From the NCBI GenBank assembly GCA_965206595.1, contig OZ242214.1, positions 2,528,001 through 2,592,000 of the forward strand: a stretch of 64,000 nucleotides of DNA, read 5' to 3'. The translations under genes and the position numbers were made by a program. Below the pieces are notes generated by a model. It saw only the letters and a list, made by a program, of their open reading frames with translations. It ran no database searches and had not been told where the DNA came from. This DNA is from Candidatus Latescibacterota bacterium. GTDB lineage: Bacteria > Latescibacterota > UBA2968 > UBA8231. Within the stretch, counting starts at the first letter, position 1. Each line of letters opens with the position of its first letter. Below, in pieces: positions 4,002 through 60,634 of this stretch.

Positions 4002-5111
4002 ATGTACGACTTCATCGTCATCGGGGGCGGCGTTCTCGGCGCCGCCACGGCCTTTCACCTGGCGCGCGCCCAGGCCCGGGTGCTGCTGCTCGACCGCGGC
4101 GACGAGGGGCGCGCCACGGCCGCGGGGGCCGGGATCGTTTCTCCGGCGACCTACCGCGGCGATTCCGACGTCTGGTACCGCTTCAGCCAGGCGTCGTACC
4201 GACACCTTTCCTCGCTGGTTCCCGAGTTGGAGGCAGAAGGGGCCGGCACCGGGTTCGACCGCTGCGGGCTGCTGCTGGTGGCGGTCTCCGACGACGAGCA
4301 GGCCCCCTTCGAGGCCGCCTCGCAGCGGATCCTTGCGCGCCCTGAGCGGGGTCCGGTTCGCGCCGTCGGGGCCGCGGAGGCCCGGGAGATGTTCCCGGCG
4401 CTCGCCGCATCGGCGCGGGCGCTGCACAACCAGGACGCCGCCCGCATCGACGGCCGGCTCCTGGCGCGCGCCCTGCTCGAGGCCGGGGAACGCCGCGGAC
4501 TCGAGCGCCGGTCCGGTTCGGCCGACAGCCTCCTCCTCGAAGGCAGCCGGGTCGCCGGGGTCCTGAGCGCCGGCGAGCGGATTTCCGCGGGGAACACGGT
4601 TATCGCCGGCGGGGCCTGGTCCCGGGGTTTCTCGGAACAGCTCGGCATCGATATCCCGGTGGCCCCCCAGCGCGGCCAGATCATCCACCTCGACCTCGGC
4701 GGCACCGACACCTCCTCCTGGCCGATCGTCAGCGCCTTCCGCGACCATTACATGGTGCCCTGGCCGGACAGCCGGATAGCCGTCGGCGCCACCCGCGAAA
4801 CCGGCTCCGGCTTCGACCCGCAGGCGACCGCGGCCGGCATCGTCGAGGTGCTCTCGGAAGCCCTGCGCGTCGCCCCCGGCCTCGCCTGCGCCTCCATCCG
4901 CGAGACCCGCGTCGGGCTGCGGCCCCTGTCGGCGGACGGCATGCCGGTCATGGGGGCGGTCCCCGGATGGGAGGGCCTCTACCTCAACACCGGCCACGGC
5001 GCCAGCGGCCTGCAGCTCGGCCCCTTCAGCGGGCGCGTCGTCGCCAACTCCGCCCTTGGCAACGAGCCGGGGTTCGACCTCTCCCCCTTCGCAGTGGACC
5101 GTTTCCTGTGA
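4002..5111 (+). CDS. FAD-dependent oxidoreductase, DAO/glycine oxidase family
   Basis: VIGGGVLG, AGGAWS, PQRGQ, GLRP...DGMP, TGHGASG; GAGGAG RBS before ATG 4002. Confidence 0.9.
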   Translation: MYDFIVIGGGVLGAATAFHLARAQARVLLLDRGDEGRATAAGAGIVSPATYRGDSDVWYRFSQASYRHLSSLVPELEAEGAGTGFDRCGLLLVAVSDDEQAPFEAASQRILARPERGPVRAVGAAEAREMFPALAASARALHNQDAARIDGRLLARALLEAGERRGLERRSGSADSLLLEGSRVAGVLSAGERISAGNTVIAGGAWSRGFSEQLGIDIPVAPQRGQIIHLDLGGTDTSSWPIVSAFRDHYMVPWPDSRIAVGATRETGSGFDPQATAAGIVEVLSEALRVAPGLACASIRETRVGLRPLSADGMPVMGAVPGWEGLYLNTGHGASGLQLGPFSGRVVANSALGNEPGFDLSPFAVDRFL

Positions 5112-14971: not shown

Positions 14972-16216
14972 ATGAAGGTTACCGAGATCGAAGTTCACGA
15001 GGTTACGCACCAGTACCACGACTGGATCGCCTACCAGCTCCTGCACTACGACGGTCCGCGGCGGAGCACCGTCTACGTCGCCCACACCGACACCGGGCTC
15101 ACCGGTCTCGGCGAGAAGGTGGGCGCCCCCGAACCGCCGGAGGTGCTCGACCAGTACATCGGCAGCAACCCCTTCGACTGGATCGGGGACGAGACCTCGA
15201 TCGCCCTCGGGACGGCGATGTACGACCTCATGGGACAGACCGCGGGCGTGCCGGTGTACAAGCTGTTCGGCCAGAAGTACCGCTCCTGGGTGCCGGTGTC
15301 GAGCTGGACGGTGTCGACCTCGCCGGAGCGCATGGCCGAGGCCGTCAGGCGCTACGCCGCCCGCGGGTTCACCTGGATGAAGTTCCACCTCTCACCGTTC
15401 GAGAACGTCTTCGAGCAGACGGAGGCGATGCAGGAGGTTGCCCCGAGGGGATTCCGCATCCACTACGACTTCACCGGCGGCGGCACCACCGACCACATGC
15501 CGGACCTGCTCGCGCGGCTATCCGCCTACCGTATCGCCGGATGCTTCGAGGACAGCATCGACGAGAGGGACGTCGAGGCCTCGATCGAGCTGCGCAAGCG
15601 GGTGCGCCTGCCGCTCGTCAGGCACCGGGCCGCCTTCGACGCGACCTACGAGGTAATGCAGGGCGCCTCGGACATCTACATGCTGGGGCACTGCAGGATC
15701 GGCAAGGCGGTGGAGGCCGCCGGCCTGTTCGCCGCCGGCGACATCCCCTTCATGATCCAGTGGGTCGGCAACGGCATCACCCGCGCCATGGTGACCCACA
15801 TGATGGCCGCCTTCCCGTCGGCGACCTTCCACGCCATCAACGCCGGGGAAACCTGCGGCAGCGACGTCATCGAGGAACGCTTCGAGCCGGTCAACGGCTT
15901 CGTACGCGTGCCTGAGAAACCAGGACTGGGGGTCACCCTCGACCGGGACCAGCTCGCCCGCCTGTCGGCTCCGGAGCCGTCCGCCTGCGATCCCTGGATC
16001 ATCCGCTCCCGCTTCGCCAACGGCGCGCGGATGTACCACAAGTACGACGCCCGGACCACCCGCCACTTCCTGGTTCGCCCCGACTGGGGCCGGGGCAAGG
16101 TGCCGATGAGCTACGACTCCCCGATCGCCACCGACTACTGGGACGACGACGGCTCGCCCGAGTGGCGGCAGATGATGCAGCGAATCGAAACGGAAGGGAT
16201 GGTGCTGGAGCGGTAG
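14972..16216 (+). CDS. Enolase-superfamily enzyme with C-terminal extension
   Basis: AMYDLMG..AGVPVYKLFG, PGLGVTLD. Confidence 0.8.
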   Translation: MKVTEIEVHEVTHQYHDWIAYQLLHYDGPRRSTVYVAHTDTGLTGLGEKVGAPEPPEVLDQYIGSNPFDWIGDETSIALGTAMYDLMGQTAGVPVYKLFGQKYRSWVPVSSWTVSTSPERMAEAVRRYAARGFTWMKFHLSPFENVFEQTEAMQEVAPRGFRIHYDFTGGGTTDHMPDLLARLSAYRIAGCFEDSIDERDVEASIELRKRVRLPLVRHRAAFDATYEVMQGASDIYMLGHCRIGKAVEAAGLFAAGDIPFMIQWVGNGITRAMVTHMMAAFPSATFHAINAGETCGSDVIEERFEPVNGFVRVPEKPGLGVTLDRDQLARLSAPEPSACDPWIIRSRFANGARMYHKYDARTTRHFLVRPDWGRGKVPMSYDSPIATDYWDDDGSPEWRQMMQRIETEGMVLER

Positions 16217-16225
16217 GAGCGGCGC

Positions 16226-16438
16226 TCATGCCGTCAAGCCCGCTTCTTTACGCAGCGGCTTGGTAAAAGTTTCCAAAACTACCAAGTCACTACTGGCGAT
16301 GGTGAACTGCCCGGCCTGGGCCTGCCGCCACATGGGTTCGAGCAACGTGCGGTAGGGTTCGATGCGCTCCACGCTGTAGATGAACCCGTTGGCATCGAGG
16401 TAGATCGGTCCGCTGGACGGAAGATTCAGCGGACCCAC
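16226..16438 (-). pseudogene. Truncated PIN-domain (VapC-like) toxin
   Basis: IYLDANGFIYSVE...SDLVVLETFTKP; only 70 aa, about half a PIN domain. Confidence 0.65.
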
Positions 16439-16659
16439 GATGCGCGTTCACCATTCAGGTAGGACTTCACGTCCTCTGCGGTTTTGAAAAGGCGCTGCCC
16501 AGGGGCTTCGTCCAGAATGTCAACAGCGGACCGTCGCAGTGACCCGGTGGAATGGCGCACGACCACATCGACGGATTTCCCCACCGGAAGTTTCAGGTCC
16601 ACGATTTCGATCTTGCCTCCAGGCAGTACCGTCGTCTTCAGATGCAGCACTTCTTGCAT
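16426..16659 (-). CDS. Putative antitoxin upstream of PIN gene
   Basis: 77 aa (TTVLPGGKIEI...VDVVV...YLNGERASW), GAAGGAG RBS, overlaps the PIN start. Confidence 0.65.
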   Translation of the reverse strand: MQEVLHLKTTVLPGGKIEIVDLKLPVGKSVDVVVRHSTGSLRRSAVDILDEAPGQRLFKTAEDVKSYLNGERASWVR

Positions 16660-16882
16660 GATTCGCGACTCCTTCATGAACTGGGCGGCCCAGGCGAGAT
16701 GGCTCGTCCCATCGGACAGGGCGTCTTGCGCGCGAAACAAAACCGCTCGGGATCGAAGACGCGCAGGCGCCCGGCGCCAAGCCCGGTCGGGCATGTAGCA
16801 TTAAAACCGGAAACCCGATGTTCTGACCTGTTGGTGACGGCTGTCAAGTCAGCTCAGGCCAAGGCTCATGAGACATCCCACC

Positions 16883-18173
16883 TTACTTTGCCAATGAGGC
16901 GCAGGACTGCCGAATCCGGTCCTGGTTCTCAATCTGATGAACCACCACCTGGGGTGAGACATTGAAGGACCCGGCGATCTCCTCGTAGTCGTCGCGACCA
17001 CTGTCTACCATTTCGAGGACGCTCTCGACCGGCGCCAGGAGTTCCGCCGCAAAAGCTCGACCTGCGGCTTGACGTTCCGCATCGTGCAGATCGTTCACCA
17101 CGGATCGGCGAGTATCCGGGAAGCACACCGCATCCCCGATCGCCCGCGCGAAAACGAAGTTCTGTGCTTGCGGTGCCCACCCGGCGGATCCACGATGACG
17201 CAGATGGACGTGAACGTCTTCTTCGTCGCGAGCCACGAGAGCCAGAACCCCTGGAATGTCCGGGGTGGGCGTGAAGTCGTCGGCCCCAAGCTTCTTTGCG
17301 ATGACCTCGGTGGAAGTGAATCGCTCTCCCGGCTCCCTGACAATTGCCGCTCGAAGCTCCCGTGCGGCACGGTAACCGATGGCCCAACTGCGCTCGCCGT
17401 CCTTCGATTTTGTCGAGTCCCCGATCTGCCTGGCAATATCAGGCAGATCCGGCAAACGCGATTCTTCACCCCACCGGTCTCCCGACAGACCAACCCAGGC
17501 AAGAAACTGCAAGGCATCGGCACGGGGCCGTGCCCTGAACCCTGCCAGGAACTCGATCAGGGGTTCTCCGGAAAACAGGTTTCCGGCGTCTTCGATGAAT
17601 TGCGCATCGGCATCTGAGATCAGGTAGGGATCGACTCCCAAGGCGCCGGCAGCTTCACAAAAGGCACGCTCATCCGGGTCCTTCCGCGAGGCGGAAACAT
17701 GTGACCAGCAAACGGCTGCCTCGGAGTCGGTAACTCCGCTGCATGACAGTTTGTCGACGACACGCTCAATGAAGTTCGACAGCGAGGACTCGGCGGAGTC
17801 GCGGGAGAGGGATTCGGTTCCTGCCTGCCAGAAGCGCAGATTCGGATTCTCAGAGGAGAGTTGCGCTCCGGCGACTTCGAACGTGGACCCATCGAACTTG
17901 AAGCTCAGATTGGGGAGGGCGAAGCCGGTCCGATAGTGCAGGATCGGATGCTCGCGATCCCGCCCTCCAAAAATCGACCACCAATCGGTGGCCAGGCCCC
18001 TCGGCGAGATGGACCGCGGGAACGGTAACATGTTCGAAGGTTTTCCTGGAACCGGGATCGAAATGGAGGCAGGCATTCTCTTCATTTACGAAGATCTGAA
18101 GTTCGCATAGCGTCGCCCGCTCTTCCCCCGAGGCGTTCGGCCCTTCGCCGATCCATTCAGTCGAAAACCGCAC
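16883..18173 (-). CDS. ImmA/IrrE-like domain protein with degenerate zinc motif; apparent frameshift at 17997-18000
   Basis: GTG 18173 frame (VRFSTEW...VPAVHLAEG) joins the 16883 frame (LATDWW...) if one G is removed from G4, giving 429 aa. C-terminus QNFVFARAIGD...RAFAAELLAP...FNVS. Homologous to 56171-57451. Confidence 0.7.
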
Positions 18174-18573
18174 GTCGCTCGTCCTCGCTGATCGGCCACC
18201 CTTTGTAATGACCGGCTTCTGGATTGAAGCACAGGCCAAACCAGTTCAGACCCGCTTCATCCCTGTAACAGACTTTCTTCGGGAAATCCTGGTCGGATTC
18301 CACGAATCGATACTGGCCGGCGCGAATCGCCCTCCGCACCCATTCGGTTGCCTGGTCCCGATCCTGTTGGGATGTCAGGGGGCAAACCGTGGTTGTCTGC
18401 TTACCCGAACGGCCGATCCTTCCACCTGGAAGCTGCCGTGCCATGGGCAATCCACCCCACCAGCGTTGGATTTTGTGTTCGGAGCTTCCCTCGTATCGAG
18501 CACGATCCGCCAGAACTTGACGTTGGGCGGCAGAGAGTACCCGAATTTTTCGCTTGCGCTTCGGACGTTTCAA
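18157..18573 (-). CDS. Small basic hypothetical protein, putative toxin
   Basis: YEGSSEHK...TVCP...RRAIRAG...YKGWP; overlaps the downstream gene; homologous to 55662-56174. Confidence 0.65.
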   Translation of the reverse strand: MKRPKRKRKIRVLSAAQRQVLADRARYEGSSEHKIQRWWGGLPMARQLPGGRIGRSGKQTTTVCPLTSQQDRDQATEWVRRAIRAGQYRFVESDQDFPKKVCYRDEAGLNWFGLCFNPEAGHYKGWPISEDERRAVFD

Positions 18574-18678
18574 ACAGTCCTCCGACCCTGGTCCCAGAAC
18601 CCCGGCCCTGATTCCACTGCCAGACCCCCCTTTACGTCCTTCTACCCGGGACGGTGTCTATCTACAAAAATTAAGGAC

Positions 18679-19059
18679 CTACTCGGTTCCCCCGCCTTCC
18701 GGTACGTGCGCCGAGACCAGGCCGATCCGGTTGCCTTCGGGGTCGCTGAAAAGGGCGAACGTCACCATCCCCGGGATCGTCGTCACCGGCACGACCTCCT
18801 CGCCGCCCAGCTCCACGGCCTTGGAGAGAGCAGCGTCGATATCCTCCACCTGCACGTAGAAGGTCGCGTGCGGGGTGCCGGTCGGGCTCGCGCCCACACC
18901 GCCGCCGATGCCCAGTTCACCTTCAGCCGCTTCGATTATTCCGTAGGGCATCTCCGGAGCGACGTTCCTGATCTCCCACTCGAAAAGGTTCCGGTAGTAG
19001 GCCTGCAAGGCCTCGTGGTCCTTGCCGACGATCTCGAAATGCACGACAGGGTTCTTCAT
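18679..19059 (-). CDS. VOC/glyoxalase family protein
   Basis: VVHFEI...FYVQVEDID...FSDPEGNRIGL. Confidence 0.9.
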   Translation of the reverse strand: MKNPVVHFEIVGKDHEALQAYYRNLFEWEIRNVAPEMPYGIIEAAEGELGIGGGVGASPTGTPHATFYVQVEDIDAALSKAVELGGEEVVPVTTIPGMVTFALFSDPEGNRIGLVSAHVPEGGGTE

Positions 19060-19214
19060 CTCCCGTTCTCTCCTTTGCTGTAGTTGGTGTCTGCCGGGGA
19101 CTCGACCAGGGCGGCCTAAAAACCAGGGAACGTCCGCAGAAACCTCGACGGCTTCCCAGGACTTCGATCCTCGCTTAGATCGAACGCAGCCGTGCCCCAG
19201 CTCGCAACCGCGGG

Positions 19215-20678
19215 TCACAGATCCGCGGTGCGCCAATCATTCAGCCCGGCGACGATGCATTCTTCAAGCCACACGCGGAATCGATCCTCTACGGATGTCG
19301 CATCTTCCCGGTAGTTGATCTGAAACACAGTGCGGGCCAATGCATTGGCCGGACTGGTTTCCCGGTCGTTTCTATCGGTCTGCACCCGCTGAAAAAAAAC
19401 CGCACAACAGGCAAGAACACCCCGAAACTCGTGACCTATGCCGTGAAATGCGACCAGGATCTGGCTCTGATTCTCATTCTGGATCACCAGGCGCGCCCAT
19501 GAGCGATACGTCTCGAGGTTGGCGAAGTACTCGAGCGTCTTCGCTCCTGCCACGACCTGTTGGCGGAAATAATGACTGCGCTCGTCGTGATCCCTCGCCC
19601 CATCAACAAAAACGGTAACGCGACCGAGCAGCGGCTTGACCTCTTTTTCGAAGGTCGCCCTAACCTCATTCAGTCGTCCCTCCGCGATTAGCCGGAGCTC
19701 TTCGGCCCGATCCTTGACGGTGTTCCATTCCTCAAGCAGCGCGTCGCGCCGATGCTCCAATTCCTTGCGTGTCGAAAGGATCAAGTCCTCTGCACGAACG
19801 GACTGTCCGACATCGCGAGACAGCCCTAGCGCCCGTACGAATTCCCGGCGCTGGATTTCGGAGAAGAAATCGACCAGCAGCGTCAAATCTCCCAAGTCAG
19901 CCGCTTCAAGCGCGTCAAGGTAGGTGCTCTTGCTGGCGCTTCGGACCACCAGCGGGAAACGCCCCGCCTTGACAAGAACAAGAGTCGCCAACGCTCGAGC
20001 TACCCGTCCGTTACCATCCTGAAAAGGATGTATCTGCGTGAAGCGATGATGGAGCCACGCCGCTTCGACTTCCGGAGCCACGCCCTCGTGATTCCGATGC
20101 AGCTCGATCAAGTGGTCCATTTCCGACGCAACCTGCTCAGGAGGACAGTATTCGTGAACCTCCCCTGAACGCCCAGTCGGATTGTTGGGTATTCGCTTGT
20201 AATCACCTCTCAAAAGGGGGATCTGTACCCGCTTTCCGAACTGATCCCTTCCTTCCGCGGTTTCCTGACTCTGCGTCAACAGGGCATGGAGTTCCTTGAT
20301 GTAGCTCGTCGACAATGGTCGTTCGTCTTTGACGAAGTCAAACACATACTCTATCGCCGCCTCATGATCGCGGATCATGGAGGCAGCAGTTTCCGGGGTC
20401 ACACCCGACCCGTGGGGAATCAGTGCCGCGTCTATGCCGTGTTCGATCAGAATCTCCGTAACCCCTCTGTCGAAGTCATACACCCGTTCGATCAGGCCGG
20501 TCTCAATCGCCCACTCCCTATGCAATTTCGTATTGAATTCCGGCAGCGCATCCGAATCTTCGAGCCGTGCACGCTCCTCCTTCCAGACGTTTGCCAACGC
20601 TGCGAGTTCGCCCTGCTTCAGGGTCGTCGGATCAACTTCATAGTCACGGATGGGATGCCACCGGTGTCCGTTGTTCAT
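19215..20678 (-). CDS. Fic family protein
   Basis: Canonical HPFQDGNGRVAR motif; N-terminal AIETGLIE. Confidence 0.9.
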   Translation of the reverse strand: MNNGHRWHPIRDYEVDPTTLKQGELAALANVWKEERARLEDSDALPEFNTKLHREWAIETGLIERVYDFDRGVTEILIEHGIDAALIPHGSGVTPETAASMIRDHEAAIEYVFDFVKDERPLSTSYIKELHALLTQSQETAEGRDQFGKRVQIPLLRGDYKRIPNNPTGRSGEVHEYCPPEQVASEMDHLIELHRNHEGVAPEVEAAWLHHRFTQIHPFQDGNGRVARALATLVLVKAGRFPLVVRSASKSTYLDALEAADLGDLTLLVDFFSEIQRREFVRALGLSRDVGQSVRAEDLILSTRKELEHRRDALLEEWNTVKDRAEELRLIAEGRLNEVRATFEKEVKPLLGRVTVFVDGARDHDERSHYFRQQVVAGAKTLEYFANLETYRSWARLVIQNENQSQILVAFHGIGHEFRGVLACCAVFFQRVQTDRNDRETSPANALARTVFQINYREDATSVEDRFRVWLEECIVAGLNDWRTADL

Positions 20679-20807
20679 CGATTCTATCTCCTGAACCCGG
20701 TTGCCGTTTGCCATGCGGCTTCCGGCGCTTCGATTGCTGCAAGAGTCCTTTTTAACCATTTCCGAATTTATGGCAGATCGGCCATCAGAGGGTGTCGCTC
20801 TTCTCCA

Positions 20808-58576: not shown

Positions 58577-58793
58577 TCAGAGCAATCATCCAATGAGAAC
58601 AAGCATCCACTTGACAAAAAAAGGAGCGCACCCGGAATTACTGTGATGTGGGAAAGCCCATATCTTGGGTTCACAGGTATAAACCCAGTCCCGCGCTGTG
58701 GAGTAGATCGCGATCTAAAGATGCATGCATACTTACCCATTCAGGATTGGGTTAATCGGGCACAAGAAATTTTCGCAAAAAGAAAGGAACCAT

Positions 58794-60634
58794 ATGGAGA
58801 TTTCACCAGAAAAACAAAATATCGATCGTGTATTTTCAACGACGACATACCATATCGATTTTTATCAAAGAGACTACCGGTGGGGAGATGAGCCGGTAAA
58901 ACGGCTCCTCGACGATTTGTTCTACAAATTCAACGAGCAATACGAACGATCAAATGATCTCGACCCAAATCAGGAAAATATAGCGGGAAAATATCCTTGG
59001 TACTATTTGAACACGTATGTAACAAATACCATTGATGGAAGAGTCTACGTAGTAGATGGCCAACAACGCCTGACAACACTATCACTCATCCTGATCAAGT
59101 TACGGCATATGGCCGTCCTCATGGGTTCAAATCTCGAACGCTGGATTAGTTCTAAAATCGCCGGCCATTCTGGATACGAAACAATGTTTTGGATGAACCA
59201 TATTGACCATGCTGAGACACAAAGGGCCCTTTTCAAAAACGCCTCGATGAAGGAGATTCCAGATAAGACAGGAATAACCGCAGAAAACATGAAAGGGAAT
59301 TACGAGACAATCAGAGAATACCTTGATGATTCACTCCCAAATAAGCACAAATTTGAAACGTTCGTGTTTTATCTTCTTCATCGTGTCGTACTAATAAACC
59401 TGGCAGTTGAACAAACGGATGTGCCAATGGTATTTGAGGTTATAAATGATCGAGGAGTCCAGCTCAGACCCTATGAGATTTTGAAAGGAAAGCTTCTCGG
59501 CCAGATTGAAAAACGCGAATTGGACATGGAGGGATATCGTCATCTTTGGGAAAATAAGGCAGCAGAAATAAACTTTTATAACGAGCACCAATTCGACGAA
59601 TTCTTCAGGTTTTTTTAAGTGCAAAATTTGCAAAAGATCGGAGAGAAGGACAACTGTTTGATGGCAACTATCACCGAATGATGTTTACGGAGGAAATGGA
59701 CAAAAGACTCCATCTCGACCATAATCCAAGCGGGGTGAAAAATTTTCTGAAAAGCCAGTTTTCCTACTATAGCAGCTTATACGCAAAAGTGCTCAATGTT
59801 TATGAAACCCGAACTTCCGGATACGATTCTGTATACTATAACCATCTTCTCGATCTAGATGCTCCGTTTCTGTTGGTTCTTTCTGCCTGCGAACTCAATG
59901 ATCCTGAGGAAGATGGAAAAATTGTGGCAATCGCCAAGGAAATCGATCGTTACTTTGCATTACTGCAGCTTCAGAACGCGTACGATAGTAACGACTTTGC
60001 TGACTCTCTCTATTCAATCTCAGAATCAATTCGAAATGCAGGGCCAGAAAGTTACCGTGGGGCGTTTGATTTAAAACTAGTAGAAGCATTAGAAAACCAT
60101 CTAAATAGATCAAATGCGGAGCCACTAAGTTATTCGACCTTTAAGCAGACCGGAATAAACCTTAATTTGCGATTTAAACGTTACTTCTTTGCGAGAATTG
60201 ACGAATTCCTAGCCGAAAATATGAATCTTAGCCCCAAACATGACATTGCCGATCTCGTGACTCGGACCGGGTATAAAACAGGGTTTCATGTTGAACATAT
60301 ACTATCCTACAATTCCGAAAATCCTTCCCTTTTTCACAACGATGATGAGCTATTTGAACAGGAAAGAAACAGGCTGGGAGGAATCCTCCTTCTAAAGGGG
60401 AAGGACAATATTTCAAGTGGAAATGAATCTTACCAAGAAAAACTCCGCACCTATGCTAACACGTTGCACTGGAATGAGACTTTGCGAGAAGATAGTTATA
60501 AATCCAAACTCGACATGAGTAGTTTTCAAAGGAAATTCAATCTCGATTTGGGCCCACTTAATCGCTACGGACCCGAGGAACTAGAAACAAGACACCGTCT
60601 GCTCTTTGAAATGACCAAGATCATTTGGGCTTGA
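58794..60634 (+). pseudogene. GmrSD-like DUF262-DUF1524 (HNH) restriction nuclease, frameshifted at T7 59610-59616
   Basis: FYQRDYRW, VDGQQRLTT, FEVINDRG; HVEHIL...NRLGGILLL...N; AT-rich. Confidence 0.85.

Follow-up and report, generated by a model that had tools for sequence, protein, structure and literature searches.

The window analysed here is the whole stretch of 64,000 nucleotides (nt) at positions 2,528,001 to 2,592,000 of contig OZ242214.1 (assembly GCA_965206595.1, Candidatus Latescibacterota bacterium), and the element under study is a two-gene cassette of putative toxin-antitoxin type on its minus strand at 16883-18573. A small gene encoding 138 amino acids (aa) is followed by a large gene that is split by one extra base after codon 59; the coordinates of both genes and of related features are collected in the table. 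The N-termini of the small-protein homologues (MKRP...) line up with the TTG start in the window. The first-pass annotation had described a 138-aa small gene overlapping a GTG-started partner by 17 nt, and this anatomy was borne out by the listing of open reading frames (ORFs) and by the sequence. The same overlap recurs in 14 related loci in which the small-gene match reaches its last residue, partial remnants included; there the match runs 14 nt beyond the large-gene start, and the stop codon brings this to 17 nt. Such an overlap suggests translational coupling of the two genes. They are adjacent and co-oriented in one operon, as in type II toxin-antitoxin systems, and 14 of 21 related loci show this arrangement with neither gene broken. 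The segment where the small gene ends and the large gene begins (18149-18198) was also the site of a separate observation: short contigs of ~87-94% identity from sequencing runs X1, X4, and X6 stack on it, and word depth there reaches ~100 in X1. The overlap region seems to be conserved in DNA sequence across many related cassettes of these samples.

Table. Features of the cassette and of its paralogous copies (positions in the window unless another sequence is named)
Feature	Position	Strand	Remarks
Small gene, 138 aa, TTG start, putative toxin of the pair	18157-18573	minus	Cys at residue 102
GGAGGA, Shine-Dalgarno-like, 4 nt 5' of the small-gene TTG	18578-18583	minus	read from the sequence
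Codon 102 of the small gene	18268-18270	minus	TGT (Cys); Trp in the family
Large-gene start, GTG	18173	minus	preceded by GAGGA at 18182-18186
Overlap of small-gene end and large-gene GTG, 17 nt (stop included)	18157-18173	minus	
N-terminal frame of the broken large gene, 107 aa	17850-18173	minus	59 authentic and 48 out-of-frame codons, stop at 17850-17852
Insertion site after codon 59	17995-18000	minus	GGGGCC on the coding strand
C-terminal frame of the broken large gene	16883-17994	minus	family residues ~60-429; rest of the N-domain, helical domain, and dead ImmA/IrrE-like domain
Low-GC patch with this copy	16000-20800		GC 0.56-0.62 vs 0.68-0.70 around
Small gene of paralogous copy 1, 170 aa	55662-56174	plus	
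Large gene of paralogous copy 1, 426 aa	56171-57451	plus	intact
Third copy, outside the window	G000:C1:2414678-2415832		locus L002, small gene 932-1360, large gene 1339-2655

The split large gene

When one base was dropped at the junction, the large gene read as 1290 nt, that is, 429 aa and a stop codon. The coding strand there is GAG GGG CCT GGC C (CCCC at 17997-18000 and GG at 17995-17996 on the plus strand), and the DNA of two relatives at the same point reads GAGGGGCTGGCC in L012 and GAGGGCCTTGCC in L031; the G4 run and the CC next to it are thus both candidates for the surplus base, and removal of a G or of a C gives ...HLAEGLATDWW.... The first-pass annotation had made the 429-aa reading depend on the removal of one G from G4 at 17997-18000. 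The excess of a single base stands, and the base in question may be the adjacent C instead of a G. The fetched full-length homologues each read VPAVH[LF]AEGL[AS]TDWWSIFGG through the break site, homologues at the insertion site read VHLAEGLATDWW uninterrupted, and the codons were in frame in all nine related loci whose DNA was read there (9/9).

A search with the product of the C-terminal frame, in which 8000 candidates were scored, gave at least 508 homologues at E ≤ 1e-3; the full-length ones among the 120 listed are typically 421-460 aa long, and the closest are 428 aa long and 68-74% identical. A profile built from 44 homologues, with the sequences of this genome left out, was compared with the 73,716 six-frame ORFs of the genome and matched the N-terminal frame over positions 1-66 (E 2.3e-28) and the C-terminal frame over positions 58-426 (E 7.2e-183). 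The same profile also matched a third genomic copy (E 8.4e-23) and the 426-aa paralogue (E 3.5e-9). Relative to the family, the frameshift is real. Of the 147 columns conserved to 90% or more, the in-frame parts of the large gene in the window deviate at 4; since the 44 intact homologues range from 0 to 12, this copy looks recently broken.

The C-terminal frame is open upstream as far as an ATG at 18085, with a further ATG at 18031, and its product was annotated as a 382-aa protein (P0004); for annotation, the message is that this called 'gene' is a pseudogene fragment. Near its C-terminus (16883-16990, minus strand) the window reads ...GRDDYEEIAGSF..., and six other fetched sequences read ...DDYEIA[GS]SF..., which amounts to an in-frame insertion of one codon. 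Programmed frameshifting was rejected, as a shift at this site is absent from every relative read there and no known signal is present. A terminator-like hairpin at 17994-17975 was likewise discarded, since one was found where 2.5 ± 1.8 were expected in shuffled sequences and it sits in conserved codons, as was a promoter-like match at 18573-18545, which falls inside the start of the gene.

Sequencing data were consulted for the extra base itself. Every word sampled from the stretch was present in run X1, which is probably the source of the window; no RNA run was listed among those containing the stretch. An independently built Logan contig of this run (3498 nt, depth 24.5) showed 0 differences and 0 gaps over 16800-18700 (1901 nt) and carries the extra base; an assembler error is therefore an unlikely cause. 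Run X5, from another study, holds a contig of a ~97%-identical strain over 17217-18543, which differs by 43 substitutions and has one gap of a single base; a gap somewhere in this span is compatible with, though no proof of, a relative that lacks the inserted base. A metagenomic protein that is 95% identical (P0030) is in frame at the run of G and shifts frame ~220 codons later, so that the large gene has been broken twice, and independently, within this close clade. A DNA-level search of 41 relatives returned only the window itself and one 71%-identical piece of 120 nt.

The two proteins and their predicted complex

Among 94 candidates, 70 homologues of ~137 aa were found for the small protein, and 554 representative clusters matched it. 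Alignment A1, which holds 45 small proteins including both distant paralogues of this genome, has six invariant columns (G29, S30, H33, K34, G41, and C64), and the signature of the family can be written as Y-x-G-S-x-E-H-K ... C ... W ... Y-K-G-W-P. Residue 102 is Trp in all other rows of A1 (44/44) and in all small genes translated from related loci (15/15), and it is Cys in the window. The ~97%-identical strain in X5 has C at plus-strand position 18268, which restores TGG, and X1 agrees with the window (TGT). The residue lies in a predicted strand (100-104) and outside the predicted contact residues described below, and the W102C substitution may destabilise the fold.

The small protein had no match in Pfam, NCBIfam, or PADLOC, and the A1 profile gave 0 matches to Protein Data Bank (PDB) sequences at E ≤ 10. 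Its predicted structure consists of helices followed by a three-stranded antiparallel sheet. Among the top 50 rows of a VIA fold comparison, entries of contact-dependent growth inhibition (CDI) toxin-immunity pairs, colicin D, YxiD-YxxD, MqsR-MqsA, and BrnT recur when counted by entry rather than by chain; the rows include YxiD-YxxD 9v8i (Z 3.9), MqsR-MqsA 3hi2 (Z 3.5), colicin D (Z 3.4), and BrnT (Z 2.8). The nearest named clusters in the ESM Atlas were DUF6972 and Ntox50 (0.76-0.78, leads only). The two sets of leads agree with each other in pointing to an RNase-like small protein, and neither is a test of it. Longer fused forms of the small protein were not found, the best 150 of the 554 representative matches all being at most 297 aa long, which is weak evidence. 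Elsewhere in the genome, at G000:C1:4020124-4020321 (plus strand), a 66-aa open frame is weakly similar to the small protein in its middle part (E 0.011 in the genome-wide profile search, E 0.14 in another search); no large-gene relative was detected beside it, and it may be an orphan fragment or a chance match.

The large protein is built of three parts, an N-terminal beta domain (the N-domain), a helical middle domain, and a C-terminal domain of ImmA/IrrE fold. Its structure was examined in an AlphaFold model of P0005, an intact homologue that is 74% identical (predicted local distance difference test score, pLDDT, 92; pTM 0.90), and a Z of ~8 was taken as clearly above background in fold comparisons. 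Residues 254-418 matched CapP (7t5t_A) at Z 14.5, with a root-mean-square deviation (rmsd) of 3.2 over 151 aligned residues, PprI (8sln_A) at Z 10.5, and a Mycobacterium tuberculosis regulator (6d2s/6cyj) at Z 9.0/8.7. With Foldseek, the model matched 7t5t at a probability of 1.00 but an E of 0.026, and nothing in the PDB was matched at E ≤ 1e-3; the profile of large-protein alignment A2 gave only chance-level matches to PDB sequences. Within the C-terminal part, residues 381-428 form helix-turn-helix (HTH)-like helices that resemble sigma region 4 and LuxR-type domains (Z 5-7). The N-domain (residues 1-138, modelled within the whole protein) weakly resembles CdiI immunity proteins, with Z values below ~8 for 5ffp_B (Z 6.6, 112 of 155 residues aligned, rmsd 3.5) and 4ntq_B (Z 5.3). 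The break in the window falls inside the beta sheet of this domain (strands 49-52 and 74-76) and between no domains.

By sequence, the copy in the window (P0003) scored 24.4 bits against the Pfam family Peptidase_M78 (PF06114), for which the cut-off is 22; P0005 scored 20.3, below the cut-off, and both paralogous large proteins had no Pfam match to this family. Nothing was found for the large protein in NCBIfam or PADLOC. The PADLOC models, in a release which we take to contain the Rosmer models, gave no match at E ≤ 1 to any of the five proteins searched. The HExxH zinc-binding and catalytic motif is present in none of the 46 aligned large proteins (0/46), in which the conserved segment at that place is F-A-R-A-I-G-D, and a downstream segment (...RAFAAEFLAP...) is conserved. 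The ImmA/IrrE domain is therefore a pseudo-enzyme across all three subfamilies, and its role is probably that of a sensor, scaffold, or DNA-binding module and not that of a protease.

A complex of the window's small protein with P0005, standing in for its partner, was modelled from unpaired alignments in three runs and with three controls. The median ipSAE of the three runs was 0.84 against 0.00 for the best control; a mark of 0.84 is attained by 116 of 157 solved complexes and by 2 of 215 mismatched pairs. The runs had at least 85% of contacts in common, with partner pLDDT of at least 82, which supports, as a prediction, an interaction between the two products. On the large protein, contacts lie in the N-domain (8-52, 79-85, and 109-112) and in the helical domain (149-197), 16 of the 52 contact residues preceding the break and 36 following it. 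The small-protein side includes 28-33, 57-63, 112-117, and 122-127; these segments hold the invariant and near-invariant residues, and in the model the large protein covers the conserved face of the small one.

Copies and distribution of the cassette

The first-pass annotation had counted two distant paralogues in this genome. Distant paralogy of the two window copies held, as their large proteins are 21% identical in A2; the count has to be raised to three. The third copy has an intact large gene (438-443 aa) and an upstream small gene with the motif Y-E-G-S-x-x-H-K, and this small gene shares an open frame with a long upstream ORF. Alignment of the paralogues, which had been named as the check on their relationship, was significant for the large proteins (the profile E of 3.5e-9 given above) and marginal by sequence for the small ones (BLASTP E 6e-4; profile E 0.011 genome-wide). 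The genome-wide profile search with the small protein did not find the small gene of the third copy. The small proteins of the paralogues share their position upstream of homologous large genes and the six invariant columns.

The earlier suggestion of independent acquisition gained support, for this copy, from other-phylum nearest relatives, from a tree, and from base composition. The nearest relatives of this copy (74% identity) are in metagenome-assembled genomes (MAGs) labelled as other phyla, and the records of related loci are labelled Spirochaetia, Vicinamibacterales, Gemmatimonadetes, and Dehalococcoidia/SAR202. Within its own phylum, a match to P0005 was found in 10 of 168 genomes, all of one family and at best 46% identical. 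Paralogue 1 had matches in 14 of the 168 phylum genomes, with an 84%-identical copy in another genus and at most 33% identity in congeners. In a quick tree (midpoint root; Shimodaira-Hasegawa-like approximate likelihood-ratio test, SH-aLRT, only), this copy falls in a clade of 7 rows with other-phylum sequences (SH-aLRT 99), and the other two copies fall together in a separate clade of 7 rows (SH-aLRT 99). Two faulty rows are to be disregarded, namely L040 and L041 (119 and 287 aa), which came from poor extraction and sit on very long branches; L038 was omitted for an internal stop.

Both window copies lie in low-GC patches (0.56-0.62 vs 0.68-0.70). Repeats flanking or bounding the patch with this copy were looked for, and only short chance-level matches were seen. 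The same patch also holds a glyoxalase-family gene (18679-19236, minus strand) and a Fic/DOC-family gene of 514 aa (19215-20759, minus strand; Pfam E 1.9e-19). At 16226-16794 on the minus strand are two short ORFs without a Pfam match. One of these, 16226-16438, resembles an N-terminal piece of a PIN/VapC-type protein and may be another degraded toxin-antitoxin remnant. A strongly atypical segment was noted elsewhere in the window (58600-60000), where GC drops to 0.42 vs ~0.69 in the surroundings.

Among the 21 related loci, which were taken from species-representative genomes, both genes are intact in 14, and one or both are degraded in the other 7: the small gene alone is broken or missing in two (L011 and L015), the large gene alone is frameshifted in one (L031), and both are degraded in four. 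L031, from a Vicinamibacterales MAG, has at 4255-4262 a one-base insertion (AGT GGC GGA for AGT GCG GAG) near residue 127. Homologues are carried by three plasmids; on a conjugative Agrobacterium plasmid the pair is flanked by two restriction endonuclease genes and an integrase. No large-protein homologue was found in the phage collection.

Known systems and interpretation

The closest arrangement in the literature is that of RosmerTA (RmrT/RmrA) and of the NetFlax 'ImmA protease antitoxin' hub D25. RosmerTA is reported to combine an antitoxin that has a Zn-peptidase domain with diverse toxins, the ImmA node is toxin-first in 58% of cases, and an rmrA deletion could not be transformed, possibly from toxicity (PMC10440598; bioRxiv 10.1101/2022.05.11.491447). 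The window family resembles these in having an antitoxin candidate of ImmA/IrrE (M78) fold beside a small putative toxin of no known family, in a toxin-first order, which is common there, and in its defence contexts. It differs in lacking HExxH in all 46 aligned members and in having no N-terminal Xre HTH domain, in place of which stand a weakly CdiI-like beta domain of ~138 residues and a helical domain; moreover, the RmrTA complex of phage Kita is reported as unpredictable, whereas the window pair yields a confident model. The cassette is thus read as Rosmer-like in arrangement, yet outside that group by its zinc motif and by the profile models, with an immunity-like clamp replacing the Xre HTH. 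To the ImmA/IrrE/CapP metallopeptidases (Peptidase_M78, COG2856) it is linked by the fold of residues 254-418, the conserved RAFAAEFLAP segment, and the weak Pfam match. HExxH is the zinc-binding, catalytic motif of COG2856 according to PMC2701414, and the window family differs in having F-A-R-A-I-G-D at the position of that motif and no partner XRE repressor.

A second comparison is with BECR-fold RNase systems (CdiA-CT/CdiI, colicin D/ImmD, YxiD/YxxD, and RelE/HigB/MqsR/BrnT), which the cassette weakly resembles in the predicted topology of the small protein and in the weakly CdiI-like N-domain of the large one. According to PMC12700104, YxiD is an Ntox50-family tRNase whose substrate site is occluded by the immunity protein YxxD, much as the modelled large protein covers the conserved face of the small one, and Ntox50 is a predicted BECR RNase (PMC3482391). 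The differences are that fold scores of the window family are all weak (Z 2.8-4.8), that the small protein of the window stands alone, and that the Ntox50 signature (H, S, K, T, H, K, and HxVP; PMC3482391) is unlike that of the window family. A description of this pair was not found in the literature; the NetFlax supplementary node lists, which were outside the scope of the search, might include it.

With moderate confidence, we favour the reading that 16883-18573 is a recently inactivated, translationally coupled two-gene cassette of toxin-antitoxin type, of which this copy is decaying. In intact members, the upstream protein of ~137 aa would be the toxin, possibly RNase-like and using the invariant G-S-x-x-H-K segment, and the downstream protein of ~428 aa would be the antitoxin, whose N-terminal beta and central helical domains may clamp over the conserved surface of the small protein. 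The toxin would then be neutralised by occlusion under a three-domain antitoxin with a catalytically dead ImmA/IrrE part. In the window, the extra base after codon 59 interrupts the part of the large gene whose product is predicted to bind the toxin, and the lineage-specific change of Trp102 to Cys falls on an otherwise invariant residue in a predicted core strand of the small protein; the copy is most likely non-functional and heading to loss. It is proposed that the broken antitoxin is tolerated because the toxin is crippled, which presumes both a harmful substitution at residue 102 and a particular sequence of the two mutations. As the small gene, too, carries a lesion, the whole copy is probably decaying, and the paradox posed by a broken partner is thereby removed. 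The first-pass annotation had held that, if the small gene is a toxin, a truly broken partner would imply either an assembly error or a large protein that acts as an activator. That choice omitted decay, which is favoured by W102C (Trp in 44/44 other rows), and nothing supports the activator role.

Several points weigh against this reading. The toxicity of the small protein is putative. X1 is probably the window's own source, with its platform and library type off record, and so checks the assembler and not the reads; X4 and X6 had no contig over 17952-18015 and are hence uninformative on the site. The small gene of L031 keeps every conserved residue despite the frameshifted large gene, which would be unexpected if the small protein alone were lethal, and P0030 is a second independent frameshift of the large gene in the close clade. 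The complex was built with the partner's 74%-identical homologue and from unpaired alignments. The model of the small protein is moderate (pLDDT 73), and residues 33-46 and 57-65, including the H33/K34 segment, have pLDDT below 50; Foldseek with this model found nothing in the PDB at E ≤ 1e-3, the best VIA Z (4.7-4.8, to a chain of CDI entry 5t87) is at a level rated common by chance, and none of the 45 family members matched Ntox50 (PF15542) or DUF6972 in Pfam at E ≤ 10.

The pattern of L031 and P0030, in which the large gene is broken and the small ORF seemingly intact, fits either tolerance of the small protein or a reversal of roles, in which the small basic protein would be an antitoxin or regulator in an antitoxin-first pair, the large pseudo-protease would be the effector, and the broken copy would leave a harmless orphan antitoxin. 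Such a reversal seems unlikely. It would account for a broken large gene beside an open small ORF here, in L031, and probably in the P0030 lineage, but the opposite pattern, a small gene broken or absent with the large gene intact, exists as well (L011 and L015). Antitoxin-first is the commonest order overall (PMC10440598), and COG2856 proteins were formerly predicted to be toxins (PMC2701414); however, the former source also presents ImmA-domain proteins as confirmed antitoxins in RosmerTA, and the large protein here has no catalytic motif (HExxH in 0/46) and an N-domain that resembles CdiI immunity proteins (Z 6.6 and 5.3), whereas the enzyme-like invariant S30, H33, and K34 are on the small protein and are buried under the large one in the model. 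A regulatory pair outside the toxin-antitoxin systems, with a small nucleic-acid-binding protein under a pseudo-protease anti-repressor in the manner of ImmR/ImmA or DdrO/IrrE, is very unlikely. The HTH-like helices that end the ImmA/IrrE fold (381-428; sigma region 4 and LuxR-type, Z 5-7) and the basic N-terminal tail of the small protein would suit it, but Pfam shows neither an XRE nor any other HTH domain in the small protein, the lack of the peptidase motif makes a cleavage-based switch impossible, and the multi-copy, patchy, often degraded, defence-island distribution is typical of selfish or defence cassettes.

Two further alternatives concern the break itself. It is quite unlikely that the frameshift is an artefact of sequencing or consensus calling and that the 429-aa gene is in reality unbroken in the organism. 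Long reads are likely, given that the genome forms a single contig of 7.05 Mb, the site is a short homopolymer, and X1, whose library is off record, is probably the same data as the assembly; yet the run is just 4 bases long, the independent contig at depth 24.5 is identical over 1901 nt, W102C is a second lineage-specific lesion, 270 nt off in the partner gene, that is also reproduced in X1, and frameshifts of the large gene recur in relatives (P0030, L020, and L031). It is equally doubtful that the copy still works, either as a split antitoxin (a 107-aa N-terminal fragment and a C-terminal fragment of 382-400 aa from an internal start) or through +1 slippage at GGG-C. Most of the predicted contact residues (36/52) follow the break, the remaining protein can be read from an ORF whose ATG is at 18085 or 18031, and the remainder of the large gene is without decay. 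Against this, the break is within the beta sheet of the N-domain (strands 49-52 and 74-76), no relative shares the shift (9/9 loci and P0030 are in frame), so that conserved recoding is unsupported, neither a stop codon nor a known slippery context follows GGG, and W102C argues for relaxed selection on the pair.

Beyond the decay of this copy, a wider proposal is put forward tentatively, namely that the cassette is an undescribed and widespread toxin-antitoxin or defence system in which a dead ImmA/IrrE domain might be kept as a sensor or switch for a signal of damage or infection, on which an immunity-like clamp would release a new RNase-like toxin. The repeated frameshifting of the clamp gene, in the window as well as in P0030 and L031, might then reflect conflict or turnover of such cassettes among co-resident bacteria of several phyla. 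Single-stranded DNA (ssDNA) is suggested as an example of such a signal because of the structure of PprI, an active relative, with ssDNA. The family is a large one without a Pfam, NCBIfam, or PADLOC assignment for its small partner and with no solved relative by sequence. If the favoured interpretation is true, the cassette would be a new type of toxin-antitoxin system, in which a Rosmer-like ImmA/IrrE domain has turned pseudo-enzyme and is fused to an immunity-like clamp. The copy in the window would then be a natural experiment, with a Trp-to-Cys change in the putative toxin beside a fresh frameshift in its partner, and it may bear on which partner is toxic and on the order in which the two are lost.

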